Below are positions 1,658 to 29,595 of a stretch of 64,000 nt of DNA, piece after piece (position 1 is the stretch's first letter; each line of letters begins with the position of its first letter). The translations under genes and the position numbers were made by a program. The notes beneath the pieces are model-generated. The model saw only the letters and a program-made list of their open reading frames with translations, was not told the origin of the DNA and did no database searches. The DNA lies in assembly GCA_038734825.1 (NCBI GenBank), contig JAVYOD010000001.1, positions 1,382-65,381 on the forward strand, written 5' to 3'. This DNA comes from Thermoplasmatales archaeon (lineage in GTDB: Archaea; Thermoplasmatota; Thermoplasmata; Thermoplasmatales; GCA-001856825).

Positions 1658-2731
1658 ATGTGTGGAATGAAGGTAATCTTAAATCAATCCGTCTTCTCGC
1701 AGGATTACATACCGTCACGGTTTCTGGGAAGAGAGCAGTATGTTTCTAAAATCGTAGACATGATCCGCGTAGGGAATTCATCTTCTACGTTCGTCGTTAG
1801 GGGAAACCCGGGTGTCGGGAAAACTCTTCTAGCAAAATACTTGCTGAAAGAGCTGCCAGAGCTTAATGGAATTTATATAAACTGTTACCTAAATTCCACG
1901 GATAGGTCCATAGTTACATATATTTTAAACACAATAACCGGTAGGTCGTATGATAGCCAGAATATTTCAACAGATCTTCTTTTCAAAGTTCTGTTGAAGG
2001 AATTACCTAATAGGTCTTTGATAATACTGGATGAGGCACACTCTCTTAAAAGGGCGCATACTGAAGCTGTCTACCTCCTATCACGCAGTAAAGAACTTGG
2101 AGGCCCAGATCTAAACCTGGTGCTCCTTACAATAGAGGAGCCTGAGATGTTTCTCGACAACAGTACACTTTCTGGTATAGGAAAATACAACAGGATTATC
2201 CTCAAAGAGTACTCCAGGGAGGAACTCCTTCAAATAATTACAGATAGAGCAAATTCAGGACTCTATGCAGGTTCTTACACACCCGAGGCGTTGGAAAGGA
2301 TCTCCTATCTGGTCGAAGATAGCGGGAGTGCGAGAACAGCAATAGAATTATTAAAGAACTCATCTTTCCTAGCCGAGGCCCAAAACTCCTATCTTAATGA
2401 AGAGATTGTTCTCCAGGCCTACAGGGATTTCTCGCCTCCTCTTGAAGATAGTTCGCTTGCAAATCTTGAGCAGGAGGATATGCATATTCTCTTGGACATA
2501 TTGAACGAGATTGGAGATAGAGTAACATTCAAGAGTACTGAAATTAGGAAGATTCTGCCTAATATCTCTGATTCAAAGTTATACAGGCTCATTAACTCAT
2601 TGGAGCTCTCAGGTTTCATAGGAAAGAAGAAGATGAGCAAAGGATATAAGGGCGGGGTAGAGAACGAGTATTTTTTTAGAGTTCCTCCAAAGGTTCTTCT
2701 AACGAAGCTTGAAGCTTTACTTAAGGAATGA
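1658..2731 (+). CDS. cdc6: Orc1/Cdc6-type AAA+ replication initiator paralog (short form)
   Basis: Walker A GNPGVGKT, Walker B LIILDEAH, sensor-2-like SGSARTAIELL, and a C-terminal winged-helix-like region (LYRLINSLELSGFI). The start could instead be the second ATG at 1667. Confidence 0.75.
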   Translation: MCGMKVILNQSVFSQDYIPSRFLGREQYVSKIVDMIRVGNSSSTFVVRGNPGVGKTLLAKYLLKELPELNGIYINCYLNSTDRSIVTYILNTITGRSYDSQNISTDLLFKVLLKELPNRSLIILDEAHSLKRAHTEAVYLLSRSKELGGPDLNLVLLTIEEPEMFLDNSTLSGIGKYNRIILKEYSREELLQIITDRANSGLYAGSYTPEALERISYLVEDSGSARTAIELLKNSSFLAEAQNSYLNEEIVLQAYRDFSPPLEDSSLANLEQEDMHILLDILNEIGDRVTFKSTEIRKILPNISDSKLYRLINSLELSGFIGKKKMSKGYKGGVENEYFFRVPPKVLLTKLEALLKE

Positions 2732-2790
2732 TTCAGGTTATACGTTCGGGTACCAAAAGGTATAAGTAGTGTCATATTAATGTCATTAAT

Positions 2791-3321
2791 ATGTCAGACA
2801 AAGTCCTCATAATAGGAATAGGAGGCGCCGGGGTAAATATAGCAAAATCAATAAATTATCCCAAATGCATACTCCTCGATTCGTCTACAGTTCCCTCACC
2901 CGATAAGGCCCTTGAAAAAATAGATTGCAGGAACCAAGAAGATGTGATAATTATCTCATCGCCTGCGGGTAATTTTTCATCGTCAGTTCTTCCCTCTGTA
3001 TGTAACGAGCTCAACGAAAACGGAAGAAAGGTTTCTCTTATTGCAATAATGCCGTTTAATGCAGAGTCTGAAGAGAGGAAAATCAGAGCTGAAAATACAC
3101 TGAGAAGCCTGAGGAAAATGGTGACATCCTGTGAAATAGTTGAAAACGAAAATTTTGCTTCAGCGATGCTCGAGAAGCCCTGGAGTGAAGCAATGGATAA
3201 AATAAATTCATATGTCCAAACGCTGATATTTAAGCTGAATCCAGCCGCTTCTCAGGGTGCAGCAGACTATCGAGATGACCATCATCCAATAGTGAGTTTT
3301 CAATCCCCATTGTCAACCTGA
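2791..3321 (+). CDS. truncated, degenerate FtsZ/tubulin-like GTPase-domain protein
   Basis: N-terminal VLIIGIGGAGVNIA parallels the FtsZ G-box IKIVGCGGAGSNTI. IAIMPFNAESEERKIRAENTLRSLRK parallels FtsZ IVTLPFSAEGRVRMDNALYGIEKLRK from the ftsZ in this window. The T4 signature GGGTGTG is replaced by SPAGNFSSS, and there is no C-terminal domain. Confidence 0.5.
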   Translation: MSDKVLIIGIGGAGVNIAKSINYPKCILLDSSTVPSPDKALEKIDCRNQEDVIIISSPAGNFSSSVLPSVCNELNENGRKVSLIAIMPFNAESEERKIRAENTLRSLRKMVTSCEIVENENFASAMLEKPWSEAMDKINSYVQTLIFKLNPAASQGAADYRDDHHPIVSFQSPLST

Positions 3322-5527: not shown

Positions 5528-5550
5528 TTTCCACTCGAAACTGTGGGGGG
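5528..5550 (+). promoter_or_regulatory. origin recognition box (ORB)-like element upstream of orc1/cdc6
   Basis: TTTCCACTCGAAACTGTGGGGGG fits the archaeal ORB pattern TTCCA-N3-GAAAC-N4-G-string. It lies about 90 nt upstream of the orc1/cdc6 start at 5639. Confidence 0.5.
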
Positions 5551-5638: not shown

Positions 5639-6895
5639 ATGGATAAAACATCGAGCAACATATTTGATAAATTCCTAAGCTCAAGCTCAATAATAACCGG
5701 GGAAAGAAAAGCACTTGAACCTGGATTTCTTCCAGACAGGCTGCCGCATAGAGAACAGGAAACGGAGCAGCTTGCGAGAATTCTTTCTCCATCCCTTAAG
5801 AATAATAGACCATCCAATGTGATAATCTTCGGGAAGCCCGGCGTTGGTAAAACAAGCGTCGTAAGGTTTGTTGAAAAAGAGATGATAAAGGCAACTGAAT
5901 CTTCAATAAAAACGAATGTTAAAATAGTGGATATAAACTGTGGAATAGTAGATAATTCTTACGGAGTACTGCTATCCGTAGGCGAGGGAATCCGGGATGA
6001 ATGGGAGGAAAAGCTGCCTTTTACAGGATGGCCACTTGACAGGCTATACAACGCAGTTCTTGAAAAGATCAGGGCACTAAACGGAATAGTCATTATTTCA
6101 CTAGACGAGGTTGACAGGTTGGTCAAGAAGAACGGAGATGCTGTTCTATATCAGCTTCTCAGGCTGAACGAAGAACTTGACAGATCCCGAGTATCGATAA
6201 TAGGGATAAGCAATGATTTAAGGTTTACAGAATATCTTGACCCAAGAGTTAAAAGCCGCCTTGTCGAGGAGACCATTGTTTTCAACCCGTACAACGCATC
6301 CCAGATCTATGATATACTGCAGGATCGAGTTATGTATGCAGGCATATCAAGCTTTGTAGATGACTCAGCCCTCAAGGTATGTGCAGCGATCGCAGCTCAG
6401 GAACATGGAGATGCAAGGAGGGCCATAGATCTTCTGAAGGTGGCCGTTGAGCTCGTCGAGATGAGCGACGAAAAGAGAATCACTGAAGATATAATATATA
6501 AAGCGAAGAGTAAGCTGGAAAGAGATGTTGTGGCAGATACCATTGTGTCCCTTCCTCTCCATAGTAAGCTGGTCCTATTCTCCGCCACTTTGATAAGCGA
6601 GATTAGGAATGGAGGAAAATCTACAATGGGTGAACTATACGATCTCTATGTTAAGGTATCTGAAAGACTTGGTATAGTAAATCTAACTCAGAGAAGAGTA
6701 GCAGACATCGTAAACGAGCTAAACAGCCTCGGTTTTCTCAATTCAGAGGTTATGAGTTTCGGGAGATACGGAAGAACAACTACTATAGCGTTAAATTACG
6801 ATACAACGCAGCTCAAGGATCTCTTGATAAGAGATGAGCTTATTTCCCAGCTCAAGGATGTTAAACCGCTCCAAAAGTCCCTTCCCATCTCCTAA
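5639..6895 (+). CDS. cdc6: Orc1/Cdc6 replication initiator
   Basis: LPHREQE..L, Walker A GKPGVGKT, Walker B ISLDEVD, sensor-2 HGDARRAIDLL, and a C-terminal winged helix. 418 aa. Confidence 0.9.
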   Translation: MDKTSSNIFDKFLSSSSIITGERKALEPGFLPDRLPHREQETEQLARILSPSLKNNRPSNVIIFGKPGVGKTSVVRFVEKEMIKATESSIKTNVKIVDINCGIVDNSYGVLLSVGEGIRDEWEEKLPFTGWPLDRLYNAVLEKIRALNGIVIISLDEVDRLVKKNGDAVLYQLLRLNEELDRSRVSIIGISNDLRFTEYLDPRVKSRLVEETIVFNPYNASQIYDILQDRVMYAGISSFVDDSALKVCAAIAAQEHGDARRAIDLLKVAVELVEMSDEKRITEDIIYKAKSKLERDVVADTIVSLPLHSKLVLFSATLISEIRNGGKSTMGELYDLYVKVSERLGIVNLTQRRVADIVNELNSLGFLNSEVMSFGRYGRTTTIALNYDTTQLKDLLIRDELISQLKDVKPLQKSLPIS

Positions 6896-8016: not shown

Positions 8017-8721
8017 TCACTTCTTGTTCATAAGCATGTCAATGTAGCTGTTTATGTGATCGGCAAGCAATGGATTATCAGTGTAGCCGCAGGCTGACAA
8101 ATCTGGAGCTGCGATGAGTGCCTTTGTCCCGTCAGCAACCATATCCGTCGCTATAAGGGAATTATTTCTAAATATTCTTGTCCCATGTGGTACCCTCTGG
8201 TTATCCGGTGCAACTATCGAAACAACTACATTCCTGGTTATTGCAGACTCAATTTCTTTTCCTAGCTCCTGCCTCAGCTCCCTAAGCTTTGGTGTCGATA
8301 TTGCGGCGAATTTTTCTGCTGAATTCAAGAGCTCCTTCATTTTCTCCAATACCTTCTCCCTCCCGTAAATGGTGTAAATAAGTTGAGGTAAGCCTCTTTC
8401 TGTCAGCTTTTCACTCAGGTCTGTGAGTTTTTCAAATAGCTCGTCAAGGTTTTTAGAAAATGTTTTCCGTATCTCATAGATATTTTTTGCCTTAAAGACT
8501 TTAGGGCGCCCCTCTAAGGATGTTATGAAGCCCCTTTCTTCGAGTTTTTCAAGTACTTTGTACGTGGACGTTCTGGGAATTTTAGCTGTCATTGCTATCG
8601 TATCAGGGGTGCTAGCACCTAAGAGGACAAGCGCTAGAAACCCCCTGAGCTCGTAGTCTGTCATGGCGAACGCCTCAAAATATTTTGATATATCTTGTAA
8701 TTCTTTGTCAAAATCTTCCAT
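8017..8721 (-). CDS. TrmB-family transcriptional regulator
   Basis: N-terminal winged HTH LTDYELRGFLALVLLGASTPDTIAMTAKIPRTSTYKVLEKLEERGFI is typical of TrmB. Confidence 0.7.
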   Translation of the reverse strand: MEDFDKELQDISKYFEAFAMTDYELRGFLALVLLGASTPDTIAMTAKIPRTSTYKVLEKLEERGFITSLEGRPKVFKAKNIYEIRKTFSKNLDELFEKLTDLSEKLTERGLPQLIYTIYGREKVLEKMKELLNSAEKFAAISTPKLRELRQELGKEIESAITRNVVVSIVAPDNQRVPHGTRIFRNNSLIATDMVADGTKALIAAPDLSACGYTDNPLLADHINSYIDMLMNKK

Positions 8722-8767
8722 AACTAATAATAATAAAGGCTTTTATAATTTTTTTCACTACAACGAT

Positions 8768-9691
8768 ATGCGATGTTCTTTTTGCGATAACGATGCAGTG
8801 ATCCATATAAGGTACAATGGAACTCATCTCTGTGAAAAACACTTCATTCGCTTCTTCCAAAAGAGGGTCAATCTAGAATTCAGAAATGAAGTGAAGATTA
8901 AGGGTAATACGAGAATTGGAGTCGCACTTTCAGGTGGGAAGGATAGCTCTGTTGCACTCTTTGAAACAAAAAGAGTCTTCGGGAAGATGAGGAATGTATC
9001 AATAATCGCGATAACGATAGATGAGGGAATAAGTGGCTACAGGTCGAAGACTATTGAAGCAGCGGTTTCTCTAACTAAAAGACTTGGTGTGGAACACGTT
9101 ATTCTAAAAATGTCAGACTTTTACGGTATCACGATGGATGAAATTTCCACGGGCAGGAGGATGCTGCCATGCAGTTATTGTGGAGTATTCAGGAGGAAGA
9201 TGATCAATGTAGGTGCACTCGGTCAGAATCTGGACTATGTAGTTACTGGCCTGAATTTGGACGATACAGTTCAATCATTCGTGATGAACATGGTGAGAGG
9301 GGATCTTGAAAGGCTCTCAAGGATGGGGCCTCACTTCACCGTAAAGGAAGGCCTTGTCCCAAGACTTCAACCATTAAGGAAGATTCCGGAGAGAGAGGTT
9401 CTCCTCTATGCAATCCTAGAGAAAATTGAGTTCTCGCATGCCGAATGCCCCTATGCTGGATTTGCAATAAGGAATGAGTTCAGGAACTCTATAGACTCCT
9501 GGGAAGAGAGGACACCAGGTACTAAATTTGCACTGTTGAACTCCTACGATCAGATTAAATCTCTCCTTTCGCAGAAGCGGACCGAGCCGCTGGGTAAATG
9601 CAAGGTGTGTGGATCCCCTACACCTGGTGATATATGCCAGAGCTGTTTACTTAAAATGGAGATTGAAACATGGACCTCATCCCAGGGATAG
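8768..9691 (+). CDS. PP-loop ATPase, tRNA 2-thiolation enzyme (TtuA/NcsA-like)
   Basis: PP-loop SGGKDSS. N-terminal CSFC...H.C zinc finger and C-terminal CKVCG...CQSC finger. Start placed at the ATG at 8768, not the ORF-track 8663, which overlaps trmB. Confidence 0.75.
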   Translation: MRCSFCDNDAVIHIRYNGTHLCEKHFIRFFQKRVNLEFRNEVKIKGNTRIGVALSGGKDSSVALFETKRVFGKMRNVSIIAITIDEGISGYRSKTIEAAVSLTKRLGVEHVILKMSDFYGITMDEISTGRRMLPCSYCGVFRRKMINVGALGQNLDYVVTGLNLDDTVQSFVMNMVRGDLERLSRMGPHFTVKEGLVPRLQPLRKIPEREVLLYAILEKIEFSHAECPYAGFAIRNEFRNSIDSWEERTPGTKFALLNSYDQIKSLLSQKRTEPLGKCKVCGSPTPGDICQSCLLKMEIETWTSSQG

Positions 9692-27199: not shown

Positions 27200-27580
27200 T
27201 TAATGGGCTTTAACTCCAAGTTTTGAGGAGGTTCGCCCATAGCTTGCTGAGTACAAAGCGTAAAGGTAGCTTATGGCAGCAATCGCAGCAGTTGTTGCAG
27301 CAAGGTACAGGAACATTCGACTACCGCCCACTATTATCTCAACAGCGTATATTACCGCGAGACCTGCACCAAGATAGATGAATGGAACGATCCTTACATA
27401 TCTGTTCTGCGAACTGTATAGAGCAAGGTACGAGGCTAGCGAATATGCCAGCAGAGCGAAGGATGTGTATAGTATCGCCTGAAGAAGTGTGTGTGCTAAC
27501 TGGAATATGTATAGAATGAATAGAATAGAAGCTAGAAATCCGAGTATGCCGGAAACTAGCTTAAAATTCTTTTTATCCAT
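27200..27580 (-). CDS. small 4-TM membrane protein, tightly coupled downstream of ftsZ
   Basis: Four hydrophobic segments. The ATG at 27580 lies 1 nt after the ftsZ stop (27582-27584). Confidence 0.5.
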   Translation of the reverse strand: MDKKNFKLVSGILGFLASILFILYIFQLAHTLLQAILYTSFALLAYSLASYLALYSSQNRYVRIVPFIYLGAGLAVIYAVEIIVGGSRMFLYLAATTAAIAAISYLYALYSASYGRTSSKLGVKAH

Positions 27581-27581
27581 T

Positions 27582-28670
27582 TTACATCACCGAGTCAACC
27601 TCTGCATCTAGACCCCTTGCCCCTTTAATTGCAACGCCCTTAGTAGAGCTGAGGAAATACGGAGAGTTAACACCAGTCAGTACAACAAGCACCTTGAATT
27701 CTCCCTTTAGATTCGGATCCACGGAAGCCCCCCATACTATCCTAGCCATGGGATTTATCCTCTCTTGTATCAACCTGACGGCCATCTCGGCCTGGGAGAC
27801 ACTCATATCCTCACCTCCAACTATCCTTACGAGTGCACCCTTGGTCGTGGAAATGTCAGCCTCGATGAGAGGGGAAGTTATTGCCTCTGTCACTGCTTCC
27901 TCTACGCTCGCCTTTCCGCCAACGCTTTCCCCTATTCCTATCATTGCAACCCCTCCCTCCTTCATAACCGTCTGGATATCTGAGTAATCAAGGTTCACAA
28001 GTCCTGGTTTAGTAATTATCTCAGTTAGACCTTTAAGTGATTCCATGAGGATTTCGTCCGCAACCTTGAATGCTTGGTCGAGAGGGAGCCTAGGAACAAT
28101 TTCTAGAAGCTTATCGTTAGGGATCACGATCGTAGTGTCTGAAACCTTTCTAAGCTTCTCGATGCCGTATAACGCGTTGTCCATCCTAACCCTACCCTCT
28201 GCTGAAAACGGTAGTGTAACGATGCTTATTACGAGGGATTTCTGCCTCTTAGCTGCTTCAGCAACTACCGGTGCAACACCGGTACCTGTCCCGCCACCCA
28301 TTCCCGATGTTATAAATACGATCTCCGAGTTCCCGATTAACGAGACTATTTCGTCGTAGCTTTCCCTTGCAGCCTCTTCACCGACCTGCGGAAGTGCACC
28401 TGCGCCCCTACCACCCGTTGTTCTCTTACCTACCAAGAGCTTTCTGTTCGCCTGAATGGTCAAAAGATGGGGAGCGTCTGTATTCATCGCTATGAGATCT
28501 GCCCCATAGATTCCAGATTTGGCGCATCTATTGATCGTGTTTGATCCCGCCCCACCACACCCTACAATTTTTATGTTTACTTTCAAGGATTCGACAATCC
28601 TGGCAAGCTCCTCATCGTCTGGAGAGACGAAGTTTCTCTGATTTTGGAGATTGTTGTCTACCATAGTCAT
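27582..28670 (-). CDS. ftsZ: cell division GTPase FtsZ
   Basis: IVGCGGAGSN, the tubulin signature GGGTGTG, and NVDFADV-equivalent VNLDYSDI. 362 aa. Confidence 0.92.
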   Translation of the reverse strand: MTMVDNNLQNQRNFVSPDDEELARIVESLKVNIKIVGCGGAGSNTINRCAKSGIYGADLIAMNTDAPHLLTIQANRKLLVGKRTTGGRGAGALPQVGEEAARESYDEIVSLIGNSEIVFITSGMGGGTGTGVAPVVAEAAKRQKSLVISIVTLPFSAEGRVRMDNALYGIEKLRKVSDTTIVIPNDKLLEIVPRLPLDQAFKVADEILMESLKGLTEIITKPGLVNLDYSDIQTVMKEGGVAMIGIGESVGGKASVEEAVTEAITSPLIEADISTTKGALVRIVGGEDMSVSQAEMAVRLIQERINPMARIVWGASVDPNLKGEFKVLVVLTGVNSPYFLSSTKGVAIKGARGLDAEVDSVM

Positions 28671-28824
28671 ACGTATGTCAGACGAGATATTTATACTTTT
28701 CTTACTAGTTCAAAAATAAGAAGGGTTTTTAGTGTAAGACATTTTTAAAATATAACCATCTAAATAAACCAGGGGAAGAAAAATGGCCAATATTTCCATA
28801 AAATTTGATTCAAGAATTTGGAAA

Positions 28825-29595
28825 TTACCTCTTTTCAAGGTCTTCTGACCCGTAAAATACATTCTGAAGGAAAGCGTAGATATCCTCCATTCCGTCACCT
28901 GTTTGCGATGATGCGAATATGCTGTTACCAAGCAGATTCAAAGATTCTGTAGCACTTATGATTTCCTCTGATAACTGAACGTTCACTGTAGCGGCAAGTC
29001 TTCTGAGATCTTCTATGAACTCTGCCTTGTTTCTATCCCACCTCTTAATATTTTCAATTTCTTTAGGCTCCAGAAGGTCAGATTTTGAAGCAACAGGGAG
29101 GAATGGCATATAGAATTTTGTAAGGATGCTAAGACCTAAAAATCTAAGAGAAGCATATGACTGCGGATCTTTTAGAAGTGCAGAATCAAGCAAATAAACA
29201 ATTGCACTACTGTCTATTCCGAAGCTCTCAACGAGCATCGAAGAAGACTGCCTGAAAGCGAATAGCTCGAGCTGGCCTGGTGTATCTATGAGAACGTAGT
29301 CTGAATCGAATGACTCGATTCTTTCTGTTATTTCCCCCACTTCGTTGACCAGAAGATCTGCAGCAACAATCTGAGCTCCATTAGGTCCTAAGTTATATTG
29401 AGCCATAACATCCTCAAGCGATATAGATTCCCTGACATCTACGTCAGGTTCGTAAGGAAGAAATTCTGCCCCCGGATCAAGGTTAACTGTAATAGCGTCG
29501 TAATTTAACCCTACCAGCCAATCCTTGAATGAGTTTACCATGGTAGATTTTCCAGATCCTGCGGTTCCGACAAAGAACACCCTAGGAATCGTCAT
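28825..29595 (-). CDS. GPN-loop GTPase
   Basis: P-loop GTAGSGKST, GPN motif NLGPNGA and DTPGQ.E. 14-nt overlap with the polD large-subunit 3' end. Confidence 0.8.
   Translation of the reverse strand: MTIPRVFFVGTAGSGKSTMVNSFKDWLVGLNYDAITVNLDPGAEFLPYEPDVDVRESISLEDVMAQYNLGPNGAQIVAADLLVNEVGEITERIESFDSDYVLIDTPGQLELFAFRQSSSMLVESFGIDSSAIVYLLDSALLKDPQSYASLRFLGLSILTKFYMPFLPVASKSDLLEPKEIENIKRWDRNKAEFIEDLRRLAATVNVQLSEEIISATESLNLLGNSIFASSQTGDGMEDIYAFLQNVFYGSEDLEKR

Follow-up and report, generated by a model that had tools for sequence, protein, structure and literature searches.

A single-domain protein of apparent FtsZ descent encoded beside an Orc1/Cdc6 paralog in uncultured Thermoplasmatales

The stretch of DNA analysed here, referred to as the window, comprises 64,000 nucleotides of a Thermoplasmatales archaeon (GenBank assembly GCA_038734825.1, contig JAVYOD010000001.1, positions 1,382 to 65,381). 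On its plus strand, at 2791..3321, it has an open reading frame (ORF) of 176 residues with an ATG start, whose product corresponds to the N-terminal domain of FtsZ only. This protein is called mini-FtsZ and its gene miniZ; the neighbouring gene, orcS (1667..2731, plus strand), encodes a short Orc1/Cdc6 paralog, and its stop codon at 2731 is separated from miniZ by 59 bp. The same genome encodes a canonical, full-length FtsZ of 362 residues (27582..28670), which matches TIGR00065 with 384.6 bits and is also recognized by PF00091 and PF12327. The initial annotation had described the miniZ ORF, its distance to the Orc1/Cdc6-like ORF and the likeness to this genuine FtsZ, all of which hold, with the correction that ftsZ is on the minus strand. 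Along the mini-FtsZ sequence, the T1 G-box GIGGAGVN (residues 9-16, nt 2815-2838) is followed by the T4-equivalent segment SPAGNFSSS (residues 57-65, nt 2959-2985), the T5 segment MPFNAESEERKIR (residues 87-99, nt 3049-3087), the T6 segment ENENF (residues 118-122, nt 3142-3156), helix H7 (residues 131-149, nt 3181-3237) and a disordered tail with a conserved end (residues 150-176).

Profile comparisons and the predicted structure indicate that mini-FtsZ descends from FtsZ. The protein matches PF00091 with 37.3 bits (E 4.4e-9), above the gathering cutoff of 33, and the same Pfam family is matched by each of the 18 family members tested (E <= 0.001). When the mini-FtsZ family profile is aligned with the window FtsZ by hhalign, the probability is 93.5% (E 2.3e-7), in agreement with the earlier proposal that the ORF is collinear with the FtsZ N-terminal GTPase domain. 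The likeness of the two proteins is weak by BLASTP, with 26% identity over 88 residues; the peptide matches proposed from inspection are nevertheless real, as IIGIGGAGVNIA pairs with IVGCGGAGSNTI, the segment starting with IAIMPFNAESEERK with that starting with IVTLPFSAEGRVR, and EIVENENF with TIVIPNDKL. The score with TIGR00065 is 24 bits, compared with a cutoff of 295, and a Pfam scan of the 176 residues finds no match to PF12327, the C-terminal domain of FtsZ. The profile matches to FtsZ chains of the Protein Data Bank (PDB) are all weak and unordered, and an assignment to FtsZ1, FtsZ2 or CetZ is not resolvable from them. Mini-FtsZ is a member of the FtsZ/tubulin superfamily that falls outside FtsZ proper, because the canonical signature motif, T3, T7 and the C-terminal domain are all lacking.

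In the AlphaFold2 model, calculated with 15 homologues (mean predicted local distance difference test score, pLDDT, 76.7), the chain runs S1-H1-S2-helix-S4-H4-S5-H5-S6-H6-H7 and ends in a disordered tail (residues 159-176). There are five strands, compared with six in FtsZ, and the fold corresponds to the FtsZ N-terminal domain minus the beta-alpha unit that bears T3. A shortening of the T2-T3 region had been noted earlier; the distance from T1 to T4 is about 40 residues, as against about 78 in the window FtsZ. It is also in agreement with the proposed absence of T7 and of the C-terminal domain that the model stops after H7 and the tail. When the model is compared with the PDB by Foldseek, the top 50 matches are all FtsZ, CetZ or TubZ (E about 1e-5, probability 1.0, query TM-score about 0.6), and in a library of viral structures only full-length phage FtsZ, PhuZ and TubZ are matched. 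The Pfam result and, for the predicted structure, the Foldseek result both point to the tubulin/FtsZ fold.

The roles of the FtsZ residues that contact the nucleotide are established from FtsZ-GDP structures such as PDB entries 1FSZ and 3VOA, and these contacts have been mapped onto mini-FtsZ through the hhalign columns. The T1 G-box, the ribose-binding glutamate (E92) and arginine (R96) of T5/H5 and the T6 asparagine (N119) are retained. In H7, the phenylalanine is replaced by methionine or leucine and the aspartate by a near-invariant asparagine (N139). The T3 loop is absent. The GGGTGTG signature of T4 is replaced, as had been noted, and pairs with A59-G60-N61-F62-S63-S64-S65 in both the BLASTP and the hhalign alignments; in the resulting A-G-x-F-S-S-S only one glycine of GGGTG(T/S)G is left and the threonine is an invariant phenylalanine. 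The pocket appears partly retained and partly rebuilt, and nucleotide binding may be either impaired, as first proposed, or kept, since only T3, T4 and two H7 contacts are lost or altered. It is different for polymerization. Mini-FtsZ keeps only the nucleotide-pocket ("top") face and therefore has no T7 loop to offer to a neighbouring subunit. From known FtsZ filament structures we infer that GTP-driven head-to-tail assembly is excluded, because the T7 loop and the C-terminal domain are missing, and the earlier suggestion that the protein is incompetent for canonical head-to-tail GTPase filaments is supported to this extent.

The family is narrowly distributed. A word-indexed search finds 15 homologues of 174-183 residues, all in metagenome-assembled genomes (MAGs) of Thermoplasmatales, and an exhaustive hidden Markov model search of 1.84 billion cluster representatives yields no more than five clusters with E below 1e-30, of which three have proteins of 248-252 residues. 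In a scan of one genome per GTDB species, miniZ is found in 19 species, all of them uncultured Thermoplasmatales/Thermoplasmata, including the acid-mine-drainage "I-plasma", and in no cultured genus. In public annotation the members are labelled "hypothetical protein", and in IMG "cell division GTPase FtsZ". Neither the family nor the locus tag or the motif turns up in literature searches, so that, as far as these searches show, mini-FtsZ is a previously undescribed type within the known FtsZ/tubulin superfamily, as the initial annotation had supposed.

The gene is under purifying selection and appears to be functional. The ORF is intact in 19 of 19 species, and the ratio of nonsynonymous to synonymous substitution rates (dN/dS) is 0.06-0.14 wherever dS is unsaturated; a pseudogene is rejected on these grounds, and the term "remnant" used initially is misleading for a gene that is actively maintained with an ultra-conserved promoter. 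Down to 31% identity, 28 columns are invariant, clustered in T1, T4, T5 and T6. The invariant blocks, M1-S2-D3, GxGGAGxN, SSPAGxFSS, PFxxESxERKxR and ENENFAS, correspond to the loops round the old nucleotide pocket, and the invariant residues are at the C-terminal ends of the strands, which is the ligand crater of Rossmann-type folds. Three loci of the long form described below (L009, L027 and L028, from two species) have A-x-G-D-A-G in T1 while all other motifs are kept. The tail is variable and the terminal peptide is conserved, being of the SISLN type in the I-plasma group and F-x-S-P-x-S-(S/T) in the group of the window. A mobile-element or defence origin of miniZ was considered and rejected, as its GC content equals that of its neighbours and significant PADLOC or PHROG matches are absent; the weak matches are to a PADLOC CARF-type Rossmann model (E 0.002-0.02) and to PhuZ in PHROG (E 0.007).

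The proteins of 248-252 residues, found in basal lineages, are long forms of mini-FtsZ that have the same N-terminal domain and about 80 extra residues, modelled (pLDDT 82) as a beta-alpha-beta-alpha-beta-beta domain. The structural alignment of the long-form model with FtsZ covers the entire core (about 300 columns, E 6e-14, query TM-score 0.7). At the sequence level, neither Pfam nor hhalign relates the extra domain to FtsZ_C, and the long form has no NxDxxD motif and no PF12327 match; judged from the model, the extra domain is apparently a shrunken FtsZ C-terminal domain. When six flanking proteins are concatenated and a neighbour-joining tree is calculated, the long forms branch off basally as a paraphyletic group, and the short forms fall together in one derived clade. 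Leftover C-domain DNA is not detected downstream of the short-form genes by tblastn with the long-form C-domains; without filtering, the C-terminus of orcS is weakly matched in that search (E 1e-4), and this is treated as compositional noise. Because the long forms are basal and model as two-domain proteins, and short-form loci have no trace of the lost domain, the history runs from FtsZ via a reduced two-domain protein to a protein with the N-terminal domain only, with one further, complete loss of the C-domain. In the first step, the T3 unit, the GGGTGTG signature and the T7 catalytic loop would have been lost and the C-domain would have shrunk, generating the form of 248-252 residues; in the second, a single complete loss of the C-domain would have produced the short form of 175-183 residues. 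In long-form species miniZ and the convergent SpoU methylase gene share about 80-90 nt at their 3' ends (L008:7671-7759, L009:7668-7747, L010:736-821); in short-form species the two genes are 140 bp apart, or a PALP-family gene is inserted between them.

The 55 nucleotides upstream of miniZ are the best-conserved DNA of the neighbourhood. Expressed as mean pairwise nucleotide identity across 19 species, the conservation is 78% for -55..-1 and 90% for -22..+11, compared with 57% for the miniZ coding sequence, 74% for the best-conserved neighbouring gene and 40% for -115..-56. The segment starts with a conserved box GTTATACGTT (2737..2746, plus strand), and about 13 nt separate this box from one resembling a B recognition element and TATA box (BRE/TATA), AAAAGGTATAAGT (2755..2767, plus strand; read from the sequence, with its centre about 26 nt upstream of the ATG), after which comes an operator-like element of the form TGTCAT-N5-TGTCAT-N5-TGTCAGACA (2770..2800, plus strand). 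In the latter, TGTCA is present at 2770, 2781 and 2792 with a period of 11 nt, such that the element extends from the space between TATA box and start into codons 1-4, and the last copy falls within the palindrome TGTCAGACA (2792-2800). The spacing TGTCA-N6-TGTCA occurs in the miniZ promoter only, both in the window and in 32 loci. Synonymous sites are frozen in the third repeat, where TCA encodes Ser2 in 19 of 20 loci and GAC encodes Asp3 in all 20. The spacing of the TATA-like box predicts a leaderless miniZ mRNA made from its own promoter, and the TGTCA repeats are a putative operator for a DNA-binding protein, placed such that its binding would block the pre-initiation complex. A structured RNA in this leader was considered and rejected: an Rfam search gives no family, and interspecies variation keeps the TGTCA direct repeats rather than a hairpin.

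Some of these elements are also seen at ftsZ. Between the TATA box (28688-28696) and the start codon of the window ftsZ there is a conserved promoter element CGTCTGACATACGTATGACT (28665..28684, minus strand), which includes a one-mismatch copy of TGTCWGACA and, on the opposite strand, a 9-mer ATGTCAGAC identical to the miniZ start. The sequence CGTCTGACATACGTATGA occupies the TATA-to-start space of ftsZ and is invariant in five orthologous loci with diverged flanks. The 9-mer has three copies in the window, as against 0.37 expected, a number reached in none of 100 shuffles; they are at the miniZ start, at the coding site 9110 and, on the opposite strand, in the ftsZ promoter. The copy at 9110-9118 is inside the ORF 8663..9691, where it encodes K-M-S-D, and is probably there by chance. 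In 440 kb of miniZ loci, TGTCWGACA is found at the miniZ start only, and in 228 kb of FtsZ loci all six copies are within about 260 nt upstream of ftsZ, four of them intergenic, when about 0.1 would be expected by chance in these upstream segments (a rough Poisson estimate from the window rate). In the FtsZ loci of the I-plasma group and the L008 lineage the TATA-to-start space holds GCGTCATACATA..GATGACA, and further upstream there is TGACA-N6-TGACA or TGTCAGACA, together with GTTATAC; the latter, a word of the GTTATACGTT box, recurs upstream of ftsZ in loci L095-L098. These likenesses, noticed partly post hoc, are suggestive of a regulator shared by miniZ and ftsZ, and this sharing of cis-regulatory elements is the only new evidence that points mini-FtsZ to division.

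Several further features of the ftsZ loci were noted. Upstream of a 60%-identical Thermoplasmata ftsZ (L041:1242-1263), in the 3' end of the preceding ORF, there is a direct repeat TGTCAGACAAT-CGTCAGACAAA with the 11-nt period of the miniZ operator. The window ftsZ has two in-frame ATGs 6 nt apart (28662-28670), and the NCBI records of the identical protein start at the second, 28664 (360 residues), for which a leaderless start also fits the TATA spacing of about 27 nt. On the same strand, beginning 2 nt past the ftsZ stop, an ORF of 126 residues (27200-27580, minus strand) encodes a hydrophobic, membrane-protein-like product, which could be a co-expressed partner or anchor of FtsZ, and a GPN-loop GTPase-like ORF is upstream of ftsZ (28825-29595). 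The orthologues in L095-L098 (I-plasma group and L008 lineage) are longer (388-396 residues, with an N-terminal extension) and are located between CDC48 and a nucleoside triphosphate (NTP) transferase gene, a context different from that of the window ftsZ, which has the GPN GTPase, the small membrane protein and methionyl-tRNA synthetase (MetRS).

The neighbour orcS encodes a protein of 354-357 residues with Walker A and B motifs, a lid domain and a divergent C-terminal winged helix. By Pfam it matches AAA_22 and Cdc6_lid above the cutoffs and does not match Cdc6_C; TIGR02928 gives 121.9 bits for a cutoff of 181, and Orc1/Cdc6 chains of the PDB match at E 3e-16, one alignment reaching residue 337. 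By these matches orcS appears to be a genuine Orc1/CDC6 relative. Its range is as narrow as that of miniZ, the identity being at least 45% within the miniZ clade and then dropping to 26%. As regards the linkage and phyletic check proposed initially, mini-FtsZ is linked to the short paralog in every genome in which it is found, and orcS is directly beside miniZ in 18 of 19 species. The two are the fastest-evolving genes of a syntenic block that has the same order in every locus: dCMP deaminase, aldo-keto reductase (minus strand), orcS, miniZ, an optional insert, SpoU methylase (minus strand), FolC, full-length orc1/cdc6 and an AAA_18 kinase-like gene. In L018 (5337-7815) three unrelated genes are between orcS and miniZ, namely an ORF of 359 residues, an ORF of the short-chain dehydrogenase/reductase (SDR) type and an ORF with a helix-turn-helix (HTH); orcS is displaced by 2.7 kb, and the miniZ promoter, including the BRE/TATA-like box, is intact. 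The orcS promoter is conserved and different from that of miniZ. An orcS-miniZ operon as the sole mode of expression is unlikely, given the separate promoters and the intervening genes of L018.

The block also includes a probable replication origin. The element TTTCCACTCGAAACTGTGGGGG (5528..5549, plus strand), 90 bp upstream of the full-length orc1/cdc6 (5639-6895), is a putative origin recognition box (ORB), judged from its likeness to ORB consensus sequences. It consists of a core TTTCCACTCGAAAC and a G-string, and is kept in 19 of 19 loci as TCCA(G/C)T(G/C)GAA..GGGG; the window has one copy. A conserved block TTTTGGTAAAAGAC.TGATAAGAAAC.GTTTTAAT adjoins it. Because the ORB-like element is beside the full-length orc1/cdc6, the locus is considered origin-proximal, with miniZ probably about 2.2 kb from the origin.

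The interpretation that is favoured, with a probability of about 0.35, is that mini-FtsZ is a functional, highly derived FtsZ paralog that has been reduced stepwise and modulates FtsZ-based division. Its expression would depend on a tightly controlled, leaderless promoter of its own. Lacking the T7 loop, it could not build a canonical protofilament or hydrolyse GTP in one, and its top face may dock onto the T7 (bottom) face of FtsZ monomers or filament ends, which would lead to capping or sequestration; this docking is speculative. It is equally speculative that orcS controls miniZ, which might occur by binding to the TGTCA operator or by otherwise coupling miniZ expression to replication status. 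When these proposals are combined, mini-FtsZ and orcS would be a checkpoint, linked to the origin, by which the wall-less Thermoplasmatales couple division to replication; orcS would sense the replication or DNA status and control the TGTCA operator, and induced mini-FtsZ, as a mimic of the top face of FtsZ, would cap or sequester FtsZ until the chromosome is ready. This extended scheme is unlikely; if true, archaea would have derived from FtsZ itself a system comparable to SulA or nucleoid occlusion.

A number of observations weigh against a role in division. The sharing of promoter motifs was partly recognized after the fact, the window ftsZ copy has a mismatch, two of the six TGTCWGACA copies upstream of ftsZ are in the 3' end of the preceding ORF, and the position of the motif varies, from between TATA box and ATG in the group of the window to about 90 nt upstream of the TATA box in the I-plasma group; the motif could also have been inherited with a duplicated ftsZ promoter. 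The residues that are conserved are those around the former nucleotide pocket, so that a small-molecule ligand fits equally well as a protein interface. The pocket of mini-FtsZ is acidic (E92, E95, E118, E120), and so is the T7 loop of FtsZ. The tail of mini-FtsZ does not resemble the FtsZ C-terminal peptide KGLD..(I/V)DSV. Furthermore, the adjacency of orcS carries little independent weight, because the whole neighbourhood is syntenic across the clade.

It is possible, though doubtful, that mini-FtsZ is instead a ligand-sensing partner of orcS, and this is the main rival of a role in division. In that case the ligand of the rebuilt pocket (SPAGxFSS, ESxERKxR, ENENF) would be a nucleotide or small molecule other than GTP, and the protein would regulate orcS in replication initiation or in transcription, unrelated to FtsZ filaments. 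The location of all invariant residues in the ligand crater would be explained, as would the retention of the glutamate and arginine that contact the ribose and of the asparagine that contacts the base in FtsZ; the two genes are adjacent, equally narrowly distributed, the fastest-evolving of the neighbourhood and near a probable origin, and Orc1-2 of Sulfolobus is known as a transcription regulator. However, conserved phosphate binding by T1 is disfavoured by the loci with GDAG in T1 that keep the other motifs, the promoters of orcS and miniZ are separate and unrelated and three genes can intervene between them, and the motif in common with the ftsZ promoters is left unexplained.

The juxtaposition of a tubulin-superfamily protein and a winged-helix DNA-binding protein is also reminiscent of the TubZ and TubR proteins, such that mini-FtsZ could be an adaptor for origin or chromosome segregation, with orcS bound to near-origin DNA and mini-FtsZ linking it to FtsZ or to the membrane at division. 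The distance of 2.2 kb between the pair and the ORB-like element fits this idea, and the disordered tail with its conserved terminal peptide could bind a partner, but a cytomotive filament, the working principle of TubZ, cannot form without T7 and the C-terminal domain, no centromere-like repeat array was found near orcS and miniZ other than the promoter repeats, and a membrane-targeting sequence is not evident; this alternative is quite improbable. Least credible, and indeed barely so, is that miniZ is a decaying or non-functional FtsZ fragment, or that it encodes a generic Rossmann-like protein with a chance likeness to FtsZ. The short and weak BLASTP alignment, the loss of the signature motif and the weak CARF-type match would be in line with it, but the substitution rates, the intact ORFs and a promoter better conserved than any neighbouring gene are those of a maintained gene, and chance likeness is at odds with a PF00091 score that exceeds the gathering cutoff in this protein, with significant matches to PF00091 in 18 of 18 members, with the top 50 structural matches all being of the tubulin superfamily, and with the long form matching both FtsZ domains.

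When mini-FtsZ is compared with canonical FtsZ (archaeal FtsZ1 and FtsZ2, and bacterial FtsZ), the common features are the N-terminal Rossmann-type GTPase fold, T1 GxGGxGxN, T5 PFxxE..R, the T6 asparagine, H7 and the layout of core, linker and terminal peptide. Mini-FtsZ differs in that it has no T3 unit, T7 loop or C-terminal domain (the latter being shrunken in the long form) and is about half the size, in the change of GGGTG(T/S)G into AGxFSSS, in the replacement of the H7 phenylalanine by methionine or leucine and of the H7 aspartate by asparagine, and in having invariant motifs of its own (SSPAGxFSS, ESxERKxR, ENENFAS).

For the hypothesized action there are precedents. SulA blocks the T7 face of FtsZ, and the SulA:FtsZ complex (PDB entry 1OFU) is among the structural matches of both the short- and the long-form models. 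SulA, MciZ and MipZ resemble mini-FtsZ in this hypothesized action only, in which FtsZ is capped or sequestered by a partner bound at one of its longitudinal faces or at an end; they have unrelated folds or are peptides, without homology to mini-FtsZ. Capping of FtsZ by MipZ has been described (PMC9897490). The best functional precedent for the proposed mechanism is plant ARC3, an FtsZ-like inhibitor of FtsZ assembly (PMC12232670; bioRxiv 10.1101/2024.01.08.574726), which has an FtsZ-like domain and a MORN domain. Unlike mini-FtsZ, ARC3 is eukaryotic, multi-domain, about 740 residues long and of independent origin, and the two are likened by function only.

Extra FtsZ copies without C-terminal parts are also found in bacteria, as truncated paralogs such as Agrobacterium FtsZ3 (Atu_4215) and FtsZ1 and Magnetospirillum FtsZm. 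Atu_4215 has a partial GTPase domain only (bioRxiv 10.1101/412759); it is 48% identical to Escherichia coli FtsZ, indicating a recent truncation, and it is dispensable and diffusely localized. In comparison, mini-FtsZ is far more diverged (26% identity) and has rebuilt motifs, strong purifying selection and a dedicated, conserved promoter. Among the divergent prokaryotic members of the FtsZ-tubulin superfamily, FtsZl1 and FtsZl2 (Makarova and Koonin 2010, PMC2875224), the C-domain of FtsZl1 and its region past H5 are not FtsZ-like, and filament formation is doubtful (PMC2875224). Mini-FtsZ differs from both families. By the published description, FtsZl1 proteins are long, their N-domain being followed by a coiled coil and then an alpha-helical C-domain, and are found mostly in Proteobacteria in another gene context, whereas mini-FtsZ keeps T6 and H7, has no added domains and, at 176 residues, has only the disordered tail after H7. 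The likeness to TubZ/TubR concerns the presence of a tubulin-superfamily gene beside a winged-helix DNA-binding gene; TubZ is a full, two-domain polymerizing GTPase, and the partner of mini-FtsZ is an AAA+ Orc1/Cdc6 paralog instead of TubR.

Negative regulators of FtsZ and links between replication and division are almost unknown in archaea, and mini-FtsZ, a conserved and presumably tightly regulated single-domain protein of FtsZ descent encoded beside an Orc1 paralog gene and a probable origin, is a concrete candidate for which an in vitro test needs no more than two purified proteins. The family is also a natural experiment in the reduction of the tubulin/FtsZ fold, with two extant stages, a two-domain protein without T3 and T7 and a protein with the N-terminal domain only, and it reveals which parts of the nucleotide pocket remain under selection after polymerization is lost. 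The shared promoter elements provide a first handle on the transcriptional control of ftsZ in Thermoplasmata. The reach of the finding is narrow, because the family is confined to one uncultured clade, unless short FtsZ-like proteins of Bacteroidota work alike.

The latter proteins were noted in the course of the searches. A set of short FtsZ-like proteins of 140-220 residues (P0021, P0026, P0031, P0050, P0055, P0059, P0072, P0073, P0117 and P0139), with the N-terminal domain only and without T3, comes at least in part from Bacteroidota, includes loci of a Salinivirgaceae MAG (L030:6099-6767 and L030:7959-9155) and appears to be undescribed. They differ from miniZ products in retaining a GLGG-type T4 and PFxFEG. 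One protein of the set, of 398 residues, resembles a tandem of two such domains.

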